DNA from: a virus
Reading direction: 5' to 3' (one strand)
Length of the DNA stretch: 37,541 nucleotides
UHGV virus genome: UHGV-0082335
Shown: positions 1,335-8,907 of the stretch, piece after piece
How positions within the stretch are numbered: position 1 is the first letter of the stretch
Layout: each line of letters starts with the position of its first letter
Notes under the pieces: model-generated
Seen by the model: only the letters and a program-made list of their open reading frames with translations
Told to the model about the DNA's origin: nothing
Databases searched by the model: none
Position numbers and translations under genes: made by a program

Positions 1335-3338
1335 TCAAATCAGCCCATAAATAACATTATGCAAATGAAGAGAGCCTGCTTCACCGGAAACATCAAAATC
1401 AATCCTAACTTTGCTTGCTCCAGGAGGAACAATATCTATTAATGCGTAGAAATTCCATGTGGAGCCTAGTGGAATTGTAAATGTTGCTTTTCCCTGAACA
1501 GAGTTCCCTTCTTTATCAAAAAACTCAATACCAGAGATTGTTGTCACTTGATTCTTAGCCCAAAAACCTAACTGGAAATATCGTCCTGGTGAGCAGTCTG
1601 AGCACTCCTGATAAAATTTTGCAGATGCTCCTATAGATGGTATTGCTACATACAAAGACCTGGAAAACATAATATCATTTGGAACATCAGAATCCGTTCC
1701 TGCTGTAACAACACCTGAACCAGTTTGTTGAAGGCTCCAGTTAGAGTAGTTTAAAAACTGTCCACTTCCATTTGATAGCGAATTTATGTATGGACTAACT
1801 ATGTTCCCTTTATCCCACTGAGTTGTTATAAATCCAGATCGTGGATAGCATCCATATGACATTATTTTTTTACTATTACCTCCAACTACCTGTCTAGTTG
1901 CTGATCCTGTCGCCAAATCCATTTGGTCAAATAAAGGCAATGAGCAATTTGTTAATGAAAGTACTGAATCATCATTTACAACAAACGGAACTGAACTATA
2001 TCCAGAGGGAGTAAGTAGCGTTGTATCTTTAATGCTTATTCTTGTGCTTCCAGATGCAGAGAACGCCACAAAGCTTTGACCTGGCTGAAACTCAATATTT
2101 CCACTTGAGTAAACAACGGTTGCGTTATCTTCAATAAAAACAGTAGAATCAAAATAACCTTCTTTCTTACCTGATGGCATAGAGCAACAGTTAAAAATAA
2201 ATTGACCATTTCTAATTGTCAATGGACCTCCATTATCAACAACCCAACAATTATTAAATGTCATTACCTCGCCTGAGTTTGATGGAGAATTAAATATAAT
2301 TGTGTTGTTTAGACATCTTGATATTGTTACTTTGTCAAATAAAATTCTATATGAATTATCAAGAAACTCAATTCCAGCAGATGATATGAATGAAGAATTA
2401 CTTATTCTTAACTCTGATAATTCACCAGTGCCAATACCTCCAAGTAAAATCTTTTTAGATCCTAGCATCTTAAAAGATATGCCATCTAAAATTGATGTTG
2501 CATTTATTTCATCCCTATTATCATAAGAAATATTAGAGTTGCTTAACCTAATTGCATAATCGCCTGATATCCCATTAATCTCAGTTAAAACGCATTTATT
2601 CGATCCTCTTATCCCACCCTTCGCGAAATCAATATCAATTAAAGACGAGAATTCTCCACTACATGGAACAACGCAATCATAACCTAGAGAGTTTATTTTA
2701 TTAATAAATAATGCAATATCCCCAGCGCCGCTGTAACCAGCGTCATATACAGAAAACTCAAGGCTTGGGTTTATTCTCTTCCAATTTACACCGTTACCTT
2801 CTAAAACCATTACGTTATCAACTGCAATTGACTTGTCTACAGCTACAACAAACCCACCACCAAGTTCGAGTCCGGATACGTATGATTTTAAATATAATTT
2901 ATCAGATATCGACATTCCTTGTATATCTTTAAGGGAGTTAGCGCTCTCTACCATTCCAATGTATTTGTATCCAATATTACTTGATAGTTTTATAGATAAC
3001 TGATCAGGATCATACTTCAGCACATTAGGAAAATAAAACTGCTGCGCACCATATGCATCATAAACAGCCATAGAATGGCCTTGCACAGTTACGAACTTGG
3101 CAATCTGCCCGTTATATACCGGGTAACCAGCAGCGTTAATGATGATTGGTTGCGAAACAGGAACGTGAGAACCGTCTTCGTTTTCCACATAAACCTGAAT
3201 CTGGTTTTCAGGATTTACCGGGTCAGTGTCAATTTTACCGATATAAATTTTGCCATTGGCTACGGCTTTAAAAGAACGAGCCATAGTGAAGAGTTGCGAA
3301 GGCATCGATACGATCACATTGGCTGTAATGTCTGTCAT
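1335..3338 (-). CDS. Tailspike protein (667 aa): P22 gp9-type N-terminal head-binding domain fused to a divergent receptor-binding domain
   Basis: First ~110 aa ([46 protein letters not shown]...LKYDPDQ) match the P22 tailspike head-binding domain as I recall it; the remainder is unrelated to the P22 endorhamnosidase domain and is Ser/Asn/Gly/Ile-rich, consistent with a beta-helix. Confidence 0.9.
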
Positions 3339-3438: not shown

Positions 3439-4317
3439 TCAGTAGTTATGTACTGAAGGAGGCAATTCTTTATTCTTAAGTCTCATCCATGCGGAAAGAT
3501 TCGTTGGTCCGTCTGGCTCATTAATATCAACATCTCGTGTGTGGTTTATTAAAACGTCTCTCGCCATTCCGATAACATACGAGAATTCATGACCGTAGTC
3601 GTAGCATCTGCCGGAATAGTTCGATTGAATTTGTTTTAGCGCCGGATACAGTTCGCGGAATAATGCCTGTGAGCGGTTGGCATAATCCCATAACCATACA
3701 AGGCTGTTTGCTTCTTTTGCAGAAAGCTCGTTGGTTTTCTTCTCTTGTTTGCCAATGAACTCACCTTCAAGCACTACCCTGTGGATGTACTCTACGGCCA
3801 GCGGGATTTGTTCAATTGAAAGTTCATCAATGCTGTCAATACCAAAACGCTGATGAACCATATTGTATGCATCGTCATAGCGAAGTCCTTTCTTTCCTAC
3901 CAGCATGTTTACTGCATCGCGTAGCGGTGTTCTTTCCTCAACAGTGGTTTTCTTTCCTTTTACATACTCGCCATGTTTGCGAATTGAAGGCAGAACTTCT
4001 GCTGTTACCCACTTGCGGAATTTGTGCGGGACTGAACCTTTATTGACTGCATCGCGGCAGCGCAGAACCAATGTATACATACCTGATTCGCTCACAATGC
4101 TTAGATTCTGCTCACCACCAAGGGTGTAACTTAAAGTTACTCCCTTTTCATCGTCATCAAGTGCAGTAAGCGCCTTGCGTGAGTTAGTCAAATCTAAAGC
4201 ATCACAAACATCTTTAGCTACAAACCACGGCTCACCGCACTTGTTGATGACGCGGATTTCACTGTCGCCGAATTTGAAGATGGTGAAATCGTTTTGTGCC
4301 TTTGCTATACTTTTCAT
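3439..4317 (-). CDS. ant: Antirepressor Ant (292 aa)
   Basis: N-terminal antirepressor-type domain ([16 protein letters not shown]) and the position immediately downstream of arc, as in P22 immI. Confidence 0.85.
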
Positions 4318-4383
4318 GTCAATATTTCCTAATCCGATTTGTTGATGCCGAAGCCCTGACTGTTACAGCAGTTGGGGCTTCAA
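4314..4383 (+). ncRNA. sar: Candidate sar-like antisense RNA covering the ant RBS and the arc-ant intercistronic region
   Basis: Inferred by analogy with P22 immI. Possible promoter GTGAAA-17 nt-TATACT (-10 at 4302-4307) inside the ant 5' end; hairpin GAAGCCC...GGGCTTC at 4349-4381. No direct evidence of transcription. Confidence 0.3.
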
Positions 4384-4385
4384 CT

Positions 4386-4547
4386 TTACGCACCAATGCG
4401 CCCTTCCTTCTTAAAGCTTTCCATTACTCGCTGATAAATCTCAGAATTAACAGACCGACCATTTTCTTCCGCCACCTTGCGTACCAAATCCAATACTTCT
4501 TTAGGCCACCGCAAATTGAACTGTGGCATTTTGCTCATTCCTTTCAT
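4386..4547 (-). CDS. arc: Arc repressor (53 aa; true start at the internal ATG 4547, not ORF start 4610)
   Basis: MKGMSKMPQFNLRWPKEVLDLVRKVAEENGRSVNSEIYQRVMESFKKEGRIGA is essentially the P22 Arc sequence as I recall it (ribbon-helix-helix). Confidence 0.9.
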   Translation of the reverse strand: MKGMSKMPQFNLRWPKEVLDLVRKVAEENGRSVNSEIYQRVMESFKKEGRIGA

Positions 4548-4561
4548 GTTCACCTCACAAT

Positions 4562-4582
4562 ATAGGTCCACGGTGGACCTAT
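4562..4582. promoter_or_regulatory. Mnt operator (Omnt), perfect 21-bp palindrome
   Basis: ATAGGTCCACGGTGGACCTAT is perfectly self-complementary and matches the P22 mnt operator as I recall it; it sits at the predicted Pant start site. Confidence 0.8.
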
Positions 4583-4586
4583 TGAG

Positions 4587-4615
4587 AATATAGTAGAGTG
4601 CTTCTATCATGTCAA
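4587..4615 (-). promoter_or_regulatory. Pant promoter (-35 TTGACA 4610-4615, -10 TATATT 4587-4592) with the Arc operator (4590-4610) in the spacer
   Basis: Consensus -35 and near-consensus -10 with 17-bp spacing on the minus strand; the spacer ATAGTAGAGTGCTTCTATCAT matches the 21-bp Arc operator as I recall it. Confidence 0.7.
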
Positions 4616-4637
4616 TACACTAACTTGGAGTGATGGC

Positions 4638-4892
4638 ATGGCTAGAGATGATCCGCACTTTAACTTCCGTATGCCTTTGGAAGTAAGAGAAAAATTGAAA
4701 TTAAGAGCCGAGGCTAACGGAAGGTCAATGAACTCTGAGTTATTACAAATCGTTCAGGATGCACTATCAAAACCATCACCGATTACAGGATATCGCGACG
4801 AAGCTGAACGCTTGGCTGATCAGCAGGCTGAGCAGTTCAAGGCTATAGTGTTTGAGACACTTAAAAAGATTTATGAAAAGGATTTGAAATGA
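4638..4892 (+). CDS. mnt: Mnt maintenance repressor (84 aa)
   Basis: MARDDPHFNFRMPLEVREKLKLRAEANGRSMNSELLQIVQDALSKPSP closely matches P22 Mnt as I recall it; GGAGTG RBS; divergent from arc across the operators. Confidence 0.9.
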   Translation: MARDDPHFNFRMPLEVREKLKLRAEANGRSMNSELLQIVQDALSKPSPITGYRDEAERLADQQAEQFKAIVFETLKKIYEKDLK

Positions 4893-5224
4893 GATTTCTA
4901 TCACTGTTCTTGTTAGCAGTTGTCTCTTCTTCCAGTGCTGAGCTGCGCGAGCTTCAAACGGGTAATGACCTTCTTTACAACATTCAACAAGGTAAAAAGG
5001 GTGATGATTTTTCATCGCTTTACATTACTGGATATTTGCGCGGAGTAACTGACTCATTGATACTAATTGGTTCTCTATGTCCTCCTGATGGCGTTGACAT
5101 GTATCAATACACCGATATCGTTGAGAAATATCTAAACAAAAACCCAGAATCAAGAAATGAGAGTGCAGTTATACTAACCGCCCTAGCAGTAGGAAAAACA
5201 TTTCCGTGCAAAAAGAATCAATAA
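4889..5224 (+). CDS. Small secreted protein (111 aa), start overlaps the mnt stop (ATGA)
   Basis: N-terminal signal peptide MRFLSLFLLAVVSSSSA; helix-like mature region with two Cys (SLCPPDG, FPCKK); visibly AT-rich; translationally coupled to mnt. Confidence 0.6.
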   Translation: MRFLSLFLLAVVSSSSAELRELQTGNDLLYNIQQGKKGDDFSSLYITGYLRGVTDSLILIGSLCPPDGVDMYQYTDIVEKYLNKNPESRNESAVILTALAVGKTFPCKKNQ

Positions 5225-5239
5225 CAATAAGGGCTTAAA

Positions 5240-5629
5240 ATGAAATTGATTATAGCAATGGCTTTCCTTGTCTTCTCGTTTTCTGTCTCAGCAGAGTGCT
5301 GGGTCGTTGGAGATATGCACGGAATAAGCTATTCAGAACGAAATAATTTTCAACCGGAAGAAGATGGTTTTAGTGGAACATTCATCATTAAGACAAACGG
5401 TGAAGATGCCAGTATCACATATTCTGGGACGGATGCGGGCGGCATGGCTTACAAAGCATTGTCTAAAAACTCCATCATTGGAATCGGCGCGAATGGCGAA
5501 ACTCAACGAGTTATCGACTCATGGGTAATACATCCTAATGGAACAGTTTTAATGTCGAAAACCATTTCTGGTTATGGGAATATGGATTCAACCAAAGCTT
5601 TTGTTGGAAAAGTAAAAAGAAAATGTTAA
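5240..5629 (+). CDS. Small secreted protein (129 aa)
   Basis: Signal peptide MKLIIAMAFLVFSFSVSA; mature protein begins EC..., ends ...KRKC (two Cys), Gly/Ser/Thr-rich; AT-rich; RBS-like AAGGG upstream. Confidence 0.6.
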   Translation: MKLIIAMAFLVFSFSVSAECWVVGDMHGISYSERNNFQPEEDGFSGTFIIKTNGEDASITYSGTDAGGMAYKALSKNSIIGIGANGETQRVIDSWVIHPNGTVLMSKTISGYGNMDSTKAFVGKVKRKC

Positions 5630-5653
5630 CGATTGAATCCAATTCCCCATACG

Positions 5654-7495
5654 TTACTGCTGTGTTGCCTCAGTAGCAAGCAGCGGCCTGATGGCATTTG
5701 CAGCGTTACTCAACGCTCTTTCATAGGCTGGCGTTCCAGCTTTAGTGTTTGCCAGACGTAAGAGAGCATTCCTTGCTGCTTTGGACTCATACAAACGCAT
5801 CATTGCACCAAAGCCAGCCTCAAGCCCCATTGATACACCAAGAGTCGCAGTTGCGCCAATCGTCCTTATCCTGTTGGCTTGTGATTGCCCCGTCTGAGTT
5901 ACTACATTTGCGGTGTCTGACCTTGCTGTTTGCTGTAGAACTTCATGAAGAGCATCAAGCTCTTTCATGTGCTTTCCAGAAAAAATAGTGTTGTAAATTT
6001 CACCGCCTGACTGAGATTTCAGCTTATTAACTTCAGTGATGAACTTGGCTGGAGAGTCACCGGCCTTTTCCGCTATTTTGCTGACGTAAGCTGCACGCAT
6101 AGCATCTTTCCCTTTATCATCCAGGGCGCTCCATATTCGTTTCACGTCAGATGGTTTTCTGCTTAATACAACGGTATTTATAAGTTCAGGACTGGCTTCA
6201 CTGCTTGCCTTGTTGAGCTTGTTAGCAATGTTTTTATTAAGCACCTTATTATAAACGTTTGCATAATCAGAATTTGCTTTAAGGTATTTTGCTGCGTCTG
6301 ATGCACCGAGGTTTTTAGCAACTGCGTTACGAAGGTCTTTTGACATTGCATTCTCTACCATATTGGTAGCTGCTTTTGCCTGGTTGGGGAAGACCATAGC
6401 ATCTCCCTGAACATTAGATCTAAATGCTGTTCTGTGCTGACGCAAGAGATCAAACGTAACATCCAAATCAGTTGCAGGGTTTGCTAATTCTTCACGTAGG
6501 TTACGCAAGGATGTAAGCAGGCTTTGATTGGCAGACGTCCCAAGCCGTTCCTGTCTTGCGATCGCTGTATTCAGAGCATTCATGGTATTTGTGGTATCAA
6601 CTGCGGCATTACCCATTTTATTGGTGACGTCATTGATAACAGCGCCAGCGGCATCCTTCCGCCCCCTTAACGTGGTGGTAAGAGATTTCACCACATCATC
6701 AGGGTTGTACTCACCAAAACGGTCAAAATAATTACTTACCAGCTTACTACGCGTTGCATATTGCTCCGCTCGCTTTGAGCCTGTCCCGAGCAAAGCCCCC
6801 TCGGCATCCTGAGTTAGGCCGCGAGTGAAAGCATTTTTCGGCGGGATAACATCAGATGTCATTGGTGTCACGCCCATCGATTCTGATGTGGCAATTTTCT
6901 TCGCCACTTCTGGCGCAATATCACCTTTTATAGCCGTTATTCCACGCCCTATTCCCTTTGCTGCTGCGGAAAGAACACCCTGAGTGGCAAGGTTAACTCC
7001 GGCATTTTTAGCTGCATTTTGTGCGAAATCGCCTTTCTGATTTGCGGCCTCTGCCAGTGATCCAATAGCCATGCTTCCTGCCGTTCCAACTCCTGGAACT
7101 AAATACCCACCAATTGTTTCACCGGCTTGCGCGTAGGGGTCTGTCGGTCTGTCTACTGGACGATAAACATCATCCAAAACCTTGGGTCCACCAAGCCCCT
7201 GACTGATTGCATTAATCAGACTTGCGCCGCCCTGCAATACGTCAAATGGTATGTTTACCAGACCACGACCAGCCTGTTCTGCAATTTGCCCTGCACTTTG
7301 ACCACCAGTGAGCCAATCGCCAGCTTGTTGCATCAATGATGGTTCTTCCCGTGTTGGTGCATTATTGGCCTGATTAACTGTTTGTTGCTGAACAGCCTGA
7401 CCAGCAAAATACTCATCAATGGCGGTGCCAATATCTTCGGTGCTCGTACCATCAGGAAAGGTAAATGTCTTACCGTTTGCAGTTACTTTCATCAT
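5654..7495 (-). CDS. Ejection (injection) protein, P22 gp16 homolog (613 aa)
   Basis: N-terminus [32 protein letters not shown] and size match P22 gp16 as I recall it; position 16-20-7 conserved. Confidence 0.85.
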
Positions 7496-8907
7496 TCCAC
7501 CGTAAATTGAATGCCTGATTTTGAGGTATATGATCCAACCTGATTCCGTGGTTCTCCTGAAGGTGTCGAATCTTGTGCTGGCGCTGCGTCAGTATTCATT
7601 GACATATACCGCTTAACGGCACTCCCCAATGATTCACCTTTTTTAACATCCAACCCCAATATCTGACCGCCATTACGCGATTGTCCAGGGTTGCCATTCG
7701 CGCTCATCCACTCGGCTTTAAACTCATTAAACTGCGCGTTTCGTCGCTCAAGGTTTGCCATTGCATCAAGCCATCTTGCGACCGTCTCAGGGTTATCCAT
7801 GTCAGTTGGCGCACCCTGTCGAACGATCTCAACGTCTTTATCCGTTGCTGGGCCGGGAGGTAGGAATTTAAGAACCTGACTGTTAACAAGGGCATTTTGG
7901 CGAATGCGCAAATCACGCAATGTTGTATCGCTTCCGGTAAGTTTTGCGAACATGTTCTGTGCGTTACCGAACAAACCTGTCGTTGGTTTTTCTGCTCTGA
8001 ACTGTTGAGCAAGCGCACTCATAGAATTGGCTGAGTTTGATGATGCTGTAGCATTGTTTACAGCCGTCTCGATGCCTTTTTCCATGTTTACTGACAGCTT
8101 AGGTGCTTCGCTAATCAACTGCTGAGCCTTTTCCTGCGCTTGCTGCATCTTAAACCCGAACTCTTGCTGATCCAGAGCCAAGCGTTGTGCTGCGATATTG
8201 TGCCCAGTCATTGCTGACTGATAGGAAAGGTTTTGCCCTCTCGCCTGAAGTGCTTCACCAGCCTGATTGCTGCGGATTGTCTCTGCCAGCCTGCCTCGGT
8301 CAATCTCACGACCAGCCATCTTGTCCTGAACAGCAAACGCCTTTTCTGGTCCAAGCGCACCGAGAGACATAGTAGTCAGCATGTGTGATAGCTGCTCTGG
8401 ATTCTGGATACCTGTCTGAATCATCCAGTCAGCATTAGCACCAACGCGATTTAACCTGTCCTTGTTGTCAGTAATGAATTTACTGTAGGCTTCCGGTCCC
8501 TGAGAAAGAGCGACGTTAGCCCTCATGGCTAAATCGCCCATATCGTTGCGTTGCTGATCATTAAGACCGGAAAACGCCTGTTGTGCCTGTGCAACAAACG
8601 CTGGATTTTCCTGGGCAAACTTAAATAGTCCCGATGGATCACCAGAAGCCCATGCATCAGCGTGAACCTTATTGAACGCACTAATAGCTTTCTGTTGCTG
8701 TTCCTGATTGTAAATATCAGCAACTCCAGCCAGACCACGTAACGCGGTCAGGCCAACGTTATTTGCACCTGAGCGAGCCAGTTCATTGTTTTCGCGGATC
8801 AGACCAAGCGTTGCGTTAATGTCGCTTGCCTTTGGCGCATTCTCATTTTGCGTACCGATGCCAGCCAGAAAACCACCAGAATTAATACCCTGTTGCCACG
8901 TAGCCAT
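7492..8907 (-). CDS. Ejection protein, P22 gp20 homolog (471 aa)
   Basis: Size and synteny with P22 gene 20; ATGA overlap with the gp16 gene. Confidence 0.8.

Follow-up and report, generated by a model that had tools for sequence, protein, structure and literature searches.

Gene content of the mnt–gene 16 interval

The viral genome UHGV-0082335 (37,541 nt, one strand; this whole stretch is referred to as the window) represents a P22-like prophage of Escherichia coli, and its positions 4300–5700 are 100% identical to several complete E. coli chromosomes. Two small genes, denoted ORF1 and ORF2, lie between mnt, which encodes the maintenance repressor, and the ejection-protein gene 16. Judged from sequence profile and predicted fold, ORF1 is a member of the Rap1a/Tai4 family of immunity proteins, and ORF2 is a homolog of Hex from phage 434. 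Both are genuine genes and not chance open reading frames, because they give profile matches at E 1e-14, 1e-44 and 2e-60 and have intact homologs (30–100% identity) in the same slot of many prophages. The locus is composed as follows.

1335–3338, minus strand: tailspike gene
3439–4317, minus strand: ant
4386–4547, minus strand: arc (53 aa, first residues MKGMSKMPQF; Pfam Arc, E 3e-30; PGAP gives a 162-nt form in an identical locus)
4582–4610, plus strand: Pmnt-like site, TTGAGA-17-TATCAT (consensus scan; presumed function)
4615–4587, minus strand: Pant-like site, TTGACA-17-TATATT (consensus scan; presumed function)
4638–4892, plus strand: mnt, maintenance repressor (84 aa; Pfam Arc and Repressor_Mnt; DNA 84.6% identical to P22 mnt)
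4889–5224, plus strand: ORF1, Rap1a/Tai4-family periplasmic immunity-type protein (111 aa; PF18602, phrog_3870, Foldseek)
5094–5121, plus strand: promoter-like site within ORF1, TTGACA-16-TATCGT (consensus scan only)
5240–5629, plus strand: ORF2, Hex-family (PHROG 2651) small secreted beta-barrel (129 aa; phrog_2651, predicted model)
5289, no strand: left mosaic joint (blastn of 4600–7600 against 78 loci)
5654–7495, minus strand: gene 16, encoding an ejection protein of 613 aa and convergent with ORF2 (PF26808 Phage_P22_gp16 on homologs)
7492–8907: gene 20, ejection protein, converging on mnt–ORF1–ORF2 from the right

Both open reading frames lie where an earlier, sequence-only reading of this DNA had placed them, and its naming of mnt is borne out by the two Pfam matches. 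The mnt stop codon and the ORF1 start codon overlap, as had been described (ATGA, 4889–4892), with AAGGA upstream. A consensus scan of the window put the Pmnt-like promoter ahead of mnt and found no terminator-like site from there to the ORF2 stop codon. The Pant-like and Pmnt-like sites are divergent and overlap within 4582–4615, the same layout as annotated for Pmnt and Pant of P22. Co-expression of mnt, ORF1 and ORF2 in the lysogen is plausible on the basis of this arrangement. More speculatively, the site within ORF1 could drive ORF2 independently, by analogy with PsieA and sieA in P22.

The corresponding interval of P22 contains the genes orf59a and sieA together with the t_mnt terminator and the PsieA promoter, in agreement with the earlier placement of the two genes where P22 carries sieA. 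The distance to the gene 16 stop codon is 22 bp for P22 sieA and 24 bp for ORF2, both being convergent with gene 16. AT-richness had been ascribed to both genes; this holds for ORF1 (~37% GC) but not for ORF2, which at ~43% GC is comparable to the neighbouring genes (43–51%).

ORF1, a phage-borne Rap1a/Tai4-family protein

ORF1 matched Pfam PF18602 across the complete profile (positions 1–90 of 90, E 9.7e-15, 55.3 bits at a cut-off of 27.7) and phrog_3870 at E 1e-44. The AlphaFold2 (AF2) model, calculated from an alignment of seven relatives, features four main helices and a short turn at a mean predicted local distance difference test score (pLDDT) of 81. When the model was compared with the PDB using Foldseek, the top seven matches were all Rap1a, the Ssp1–Rap1a complex or Tai4 (among them Rap1a 3zfi and 4bi8 and Tai4 6ije), with TM-scores to the target of 0.73–0.78; beyond these seven, the matches fall to chance level. 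The all-helical character and the likeness to Rap1a/Tai4, the latter originally a guess, are thus both upheld.

Residues 1–17 (MRFLSLFLLAVVSSSSA, followed by E) make up a predicted signal peptide with an n-region, a hydrophobic core and cleavage between SSA and E. The remaining protein contains two cysteines, C64 and C107, which align with both cysteines of Agrobacterium tumefaciens Tai4 and are invariant in seven of seven relatives. The Rap1a/Tai4 family is characterized by periplasmic, dimeric proteins with a Sec signal peptide and a conserved disulfide (English et al. 2012, PMC3533786). No match to ORF1 was obtained in NCBIfam or PADLOC. A profile of the ORF1 family returned only weak matches among PDB sequences, Tai4 at E 0.13, and therefore no cognate effector can be proposed. 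It should be noted that the PGAP/RefSeq name of the protein already is "Rap1a/Tai family immunity protein", and the family assignment is therefore not new; we emphasize the unusual, regulated phage context in which this member occurs.

Genomic context was sampled from 80 viral loci and ten additional look-ups. ORF1 is flanked by mnt and ORF2/gene 16, with no Tae4/Ssp effector gene beside it, and this also holds for all relatives examined; ORF1 therefore presents itself as a phage-borne orphan immunity gene. The literature searched contained no description of a Rap1a/Tai4 protein carried by a phage. ORF1 is rare (26 of 5426 complete E. coli genomes), but at the mnt slot it is conserved among several diverged P22-like phages from E. 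coli and Serratia. Six related clusters (64–98% identity) all reside in P22-like prophages, including those of E. coli and Serratia; in five of the six the gene directly follows mnt, three times with the ATGA overlap seen in the window. In a P22-like prophage of Serratia fonticola (L001:10356–10715), two Rap1a paralogs follow mnt one after the other, the second of them filling the next slot (PF18602, E 1.7e-8) and sharing 33% identity with ORF1. This tandem echoes the Rap1a/Rap1b pairs in Serratia marcescens, within its type VI secretion system (T6SS) cluster. Distant Rap1a/Tai genes were found on conjugative plasmids of P. syringae and in the environmental phage DSL-LC04.

ORF2, a homolog of phage 434 Hex

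ORF2 and 434 Hex belong to the same protein family, matching phrog_2651 at E 2e-60 and E 1.4e-58, respectively. A direct BLASTP alignment extends over the full length of both proteins (29% identity, 133 columns, pairwise E 8e-15), and the product of Sf6 gene 38 (gp38) is a further member of PHROG 2651. This connection is missing from current annotation, in which ORF2 is a "hypothetical protein" and PHROG 2651 carries the label "unknown function". It lends support of a kind not contained in the sequence-only reading to the superinfection-exclusion function suggested there. In phage genomes, tblastn aligned ORF2 over its full length (29%) to a cI-adjacent gene in 434, Sf6, HK633, HK446, Sf101 and Huey. 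The Hex-family gene follows cI with a start/stop overlap in 434, Sf6 and one metagenomic prophage, and is located next to the repressor gene in HK633, HK446, Sf101 and Huey.

The AF2 model of ORF2 (pLDDT 86) is all-beta, with ten strands forming a closed barrel; its beta-rich character had been anticipated. A single hydrophobic segment is present at the N-terminus, where residues 1–18 (MKLIIAMAFLVFSFSVSA, followed by E; cleavage between VSA and E) are predicted to serve as signal peptide; the two cysteines are Cys20 and Cys129. The signal peptides, the cysteine pairs and the lack of a lipobox described earlier for both proteins were thus recovered.

The ORF2 family profile was searched against 1.8 billion representative proteins, and statistics were derived from 61 aligned members. 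The Hex family comprises at least 132 clusters at 50% identity, with lengths nearly all between 120 and 140 residues. Signal-peptide features were present in 56/61 members, with Ala as the −1 residue in 49/61. Equally, 56/61 members contain two or four cysteines, typically in an A-x-C-W motif after the cleavage site and a C-terminal G-x-C. An aromatic C-terminal residue was found in two members only. The signal peptide, the N- and C-terminal cysteine pattern and the rarity of aromatic ends therefore argue for a disulfide-tied barrel in the periplasm and not for an outer-membrane protein; by sequence and model, Hex-family proteins resemble soluble beta-barrels of the periplasm that carry a signal peptide and have their N- and C-terminal ends joined by a disulfide.

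Searches for a more specific relationship were negative. ORF2 had no match in Pfam, NCBIfam or PADLOC, and comparison of the 61 family members with Pfam gave nothing consistent and no immunity or inhibitor family. PDB sequence searches with ORF2 and with the 61-sequence profile returned chance-level matches only. Neither a profile match nor a specific fold match to periplasmic lysozyme inhibitors of the MliC/PliC/Ivy type was detected, and the MliC/PliC or Tsi relationship raised earlier found no support in profile and fold searches. Three candidate identities were rejected: an outer-membrane barrel similar to Lom, Ail or PagP (no C-terminal aromatic beta-signal or membrane-spanning strands), an exclusion lipoprotein like Cor/Llp (lipobox absent) and a SieA homolog (single N-terminal hydrophobic segment, all-beta fold and no sequence similarity).

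Published data on Hex and the export signals of the family

The 434 hex gene (L089:2429–2905), named for "heterologous exclusion", is annotated as "repressor protection protein", and its start codon overlaps the cI stop codon. It shares with cI a transcript that starts at PRM (Shkilnyj et al. 2013, PMC3564112). Lysogens of lambda imm434 in Salmonella exclude P22, and hex- lysogens do not (Susskind and Botstein, per PMC3564112). From data obtained with a 6-kDa fragment it was proposed that Hex blocks RecA-stimulated repressor cleavage (PMC3564112). The text of that study makes no mention of a signal peptide, the periplasm or membranes.

The published Hex open reading frame of 158 aa corresponds to a 134-aa protein plus 24 upstream codons. 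The stable fragment, sHex, has its N-terminus at E43 of the 158-aa frame, which is E19 of the 134-aa form and the first residue past the predicted signal-peptidase site between ANS and ECW. The export features of the Hex family, as read from sequence, thus fit poorly with the published cytoplasmic anti-RecA role.

Distribution and modularity of the two genes

ORF2 was identified in 147 of 5426 complete E. coli genomes (about 3%) and is far commoner than ORF1. Among the 80 viral loci retrieved, 77 carry ORF2 at 87–100% identity, just 13 of them together with ORF1. Accordingly, ORF2 occurs without ORF1 in 64 of these 77 loci and in about 120 of the 147 E. coli genomes. Conversely, ORF1 relatives without ORF2 are found in Serratia and in one further locus (L101). 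As each gene also occurs without the other, ORF1 and ORF2 are best seen as independent genes in one slot, and the notion that they form a pair was not sustained. The arrangement of an ORF1 gene with a Hex-like gene does recur in two diverged P22-like lineages, at 82%/49% and 65%/49% identity.

The position of ORF2 is well conserved. The distance between its end and the gene 16 stop codon is 24 bp in 69 of 76 loci, and P22-like phages from E. coli, Salmonella, Yersinia and metagenomes have Hex-family members (30–100% identity) directly next to gene 16. The same slot, next to divergent gene 16 homologs, is taken by relatives of 30–41% identity in a Yersinia genome and in metagenomic phages. A P22-type sieA was present in none of the ORF2-bearing loci; tblastn with SieA matched P22 itself only.

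In all loci that carry ORF2 without ORF1, DNA homology to the window starts at 5289 (blastn, 78 loci). This position is codon 17 of ORF2, at the junction between the signal peptide and the mature protein, and the same limit ("from nt 50") was observed in E. coli genomes. Homology is lost to the left of it, and the ORF1 cassette therefore brings its own version of the ORF2 signal peptide. The interval from mnt to ORF2 is a cassette hotspot (L022–L085). It is occupied by a PEGA-like lipoprotein gene (phrog_6823) in 21 loci, and elsewhere by a SocA/Panacea antitoxin-like gene with its partner, a P63C-domain protein, a ClpP-like protein, P22 orf59a, a 134-aa protein with an HExxH motif, or a 105-aa secreted protein (phrog_19844), the start of which overlaps the mnt stop codon in locus L082.

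Several further observations relate to the surroundings of the Hex-family genes. In ten loci, the DNA from ORF2 to approximately 6299 is 86–93% identical to the window, which includes the C-terminal ~215 codons of gene 16 (5654–6299); the gene 16 protein of those loci is ~60% identical overall (~82% in one further locus). This block of conserved DNA therefore suggests that ORF2 travels with the C-terminal part of gp16. Mutations of P22 that escape SieA map to the C-terminal region of gp16 (PMC10883804). In E. coli strain C (NZ_CP029371, L102:7016–7330), the RefSeq start of ORF2 is an internal Met, resulting in a protein of 104 aa from which the signal peptide is lost. The locus is a decayed prophage between intS and torI with pseudogene fragments after gene 16 and mnt–ORF1–ORF2 intact.

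In a viral contig of lambdoid type (L086; 6881–7132, minus strand, and 5986–6381, plus strand), a Hex-like gene is located with the terminase genes on one side and the lysis genes on the other. Within a few hundred bases of it, an 83-aa open reading frame resembles a colicin/pyocin DNase immunity protein (YTEAEF...TEHPEGSDLIYY) and may, by this likeness, be another orphan immunity gene. In a P22-like prophage of Serratia (L095:8536–11337), the gene 16 slot is taken by a protein of 933 aa that has an SLT lytic-transglycosylase domain, so that the ejection proteins of some relatives may carry a predicted peptidoglycan hydrolase. The chromosome of Aeromonas media (L003:9468–10411) encodes a distant Hex-family member (27% identical) 15 bp after a 172-aa predicted membrane protein, in a non-phage context beside an IS transposase and an integrase-like gene; the arrangement did not resemble an effector–immunity pair.

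Proposed function and alternative explanations

We propose that two independent genes, placed between mnt and gene 16, protect the lysogen. ORF1 would be translated by coupling to mnt through the ATGA overlap and the AAGGA Shine–Dalgarno sequence, exported by Sec and stabilized by a Cys64–Cys107 disulfide. In the periplasm, it would bind and block peptidoglycan amidases of the Tae4/Ssp type delivered by the T6SSs of competitors, so that the lysogen survives attacks to which its non-lysogenic siblings are sensitive. ORF2 would be exported as a soluble beta-barrel of ~111 residues, its ends tied by Cys20–Cys129, and would exclude superinfecting P22-like phages at the periplasmic stage of DNA delivery, as a soluble analog of SieA. 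Interference with DNA delivery is suggested because of the predicted compartment and the sieA position by the ejection genes. For this combination of Tae4-type amidase immunity and periplasmic superinfection exclusion in one lysogen-expressed locus, we estimate a probability of roughly 0.55.

A number of points weigh against it. Gene structure, families, predicted folds, genomic distribution and positional conservation were computed here; from these we infer that both proteins are exported and form disulfides, that their genes are transcribed from Pmnt, what they target and that each is protective. The signal peptides of ORF1, ORF2 and the Hex family were judged by sequence rules alone. ORF1 is ~24–26% identical to the solved Rap1a and Tai4, and its target therefore cannot be named; Rap1b and Rap2b are family members that bind no toxin (PMC3533786). 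P22 has t_mnt and a separate PsieA where the window runs from mnt into ORF2. The sole biochemistry on the Hex family assigns a cytoplasmic anti-RecA role (PMC3564112).

This last role is the most explicit alternative for ORF2, which would then be a cytoplasmic "repressor protection protein" as published for Hex and annotated in the 434 record, blocking RecA-stimulated autocleavage of C2/cI-type repressors. In line with this, phage release from hex- lysogens is 30-fold higher, an effect that depends on recA, and the 6-kDa fragment blocks cleavage of both the 434 and the P22 repressor in vitro (PMC3564112). However, the signal peptide is family-wide, cysteine counts are even and the predicted fold is a closed barrel. 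The active fragment starts precisely at the predicted signal-peptidase site, in a study that never considered export, and full-length Hex was toxic when overexpressed and never purified intact (PMC3564112). Moreover, in P22-like phages the ORF2-type gene adjoins the ejection genes and not the c2 repressor. We regard a cytoplasmic function of ORF2 as quite improbable. ORF2 could also be a second immunity or inhibitor protein directed at an antibacterial toxin that acts in the periplasm, be it a T6SS effector, a bacteriocin or a lysozyme-like enzyme, which would make the locus a two-gene immunity array. This is unlikely, albeit not negligible: Pfam gave no immunity or inhibitor family for the aligned members (0/61), NCBIfam and PADLOC gave no match for ORF2, no effector was found beside any Hex-family member in the contexts examined, in different genera the family keeps to phage positions (gene 16, cI), and its sole known phenotype is phage exclusion.

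Whether the two proteins act as mutually dependent subunits of one system was considered in light of the recurrence of both genes in the two other P22-like lineages and of the separate ORF2 signal-peptide version that belongs to the window-type ORF1 cassette. The many genomes and viral loci with ORF2 alone, the ORF1 relatives without ORF2 in Serratia and L101 and the occurrence of Hex in 434 and Sf6 without a Rap1a neighbour render such a system very improbable. For ORF1, finally, a role apart from T6SS effectors appears clearly unlikely. The protein might be an inert Rap paralog, in the manner of Rap1b and Rap2b, or inhibit the cell-wall endopeptidase of a virion and thereby act as a second exclusion factor; its lineage is phage-only (phrog_3870), and some gene 16 homologs carry a peptidoglycan-hydrolase domain (SLT, L095). 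All characterized functions in the family are, however, neutralizations of Tae4/Ssp, and retention of the gene and its mnt coupling across 64–100% identity speaks against an inert protein.

A host-protection locus of the kind favoured here would have consequences beyond this prophage. Salmonella and Enterobacter, enteric competitors of E. coli, use Tae4 in the gut. ORF1 would represent lysogenic conversion that confers immunity to a type VI amidase, and resistance to bacterial weapons could be passed among E. coli by a phage. ORF2 ties an uncharacterized E. coli gene to Hex, a genetically defined exclusion function of 1980 whose mechanism was never settled; the export signals of the family provide a testable alternative to the published mechanism and call for a re-examination of Hex. 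A broader proposition is that the Hex family constitutes a widespread, unrecognized class of soluble periplasmic superinfection-exclusion proteins blocking the P22-like ejection conduit across the periplasm, that the cytoplasmic anti-RecA role is an artefact which arose because a protein with a signal peptide was studied outside its compartment, and that the prophage, with its Mnt-coupled orphan Tai4-type gene as well, arms its host from one maintenance operon against phages and T6SSs alike. We put this forward tentatively, as a possibility that has the odds somewhat against it.

Comparison with known systems

Rap1a of Serratia marcescens and Tai4 of A. tumefaciens, Salmonella and Enterobacter are T6SS amidase immunity proteins that share with ORF1 the PF18602 profile, a helical fold, export by a Sec signal peptide, the cysteine pair of the conserved disulfide and a mature length of ~95 residues. 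ORF1 differs in that it is only ~25% identical to the solved members, lies outside a T6SS cluster without an adjacent Tae4/Ssp effector, and is carried by a phage, its translation coupled to that of the Mnt repressor. Acquired orphan genes for interbacterial immunity are also known from the AID islands of Bacteroidales, which offer an analogy to ORF1. Those of Vibrio and of the Salmonella Typhi immunity islet (PMC7400221) are likewise effector-less and horizontally spread and would protect against attackers, whereas ORF1 is carried by a temperate phage, in whose lysogeny-maintenance operon it is embedded.

For ORF2, the closest comparison is with 434 Hex and Sf6 gene 38, which have in common with it PHROG 2651, 29–30% full-length identity, a signal peptide and the A-x-C-W...G-x-C pattern; Hex and ORF2 are both encoded just downstream of a lysogeny-maintenance repressor operon. 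Hex, however, follows cI in immC of a lambdoid phage, and ORF2 is found in immI beside gene 16. The mechanism published for Hex is cytoplasmic and is unsupported by the sequence features of the family. P1 Sim and T4 Sp and Imm are envelope exclusion proteins that act after adsorption, Sim being exported and processed; they are analogies to ORF2 only, with no detected homology. P22 SieA resembles ORF2 in position and orientation, both being convergent with gene 16 and 22–24 bp from its stop codon. SieA is expressed in the lysogen and blocks P22-like DNA injection via the gp16/gp20 conduit (PMC10883804). SieA spans the inner membrane three times and lacks a signal peptide, whereas for ORF2 a soluble barrel in the periplasm is predicted; the sequence evidence for export suggests that a soluble equivalent of SieA occupies this locus.

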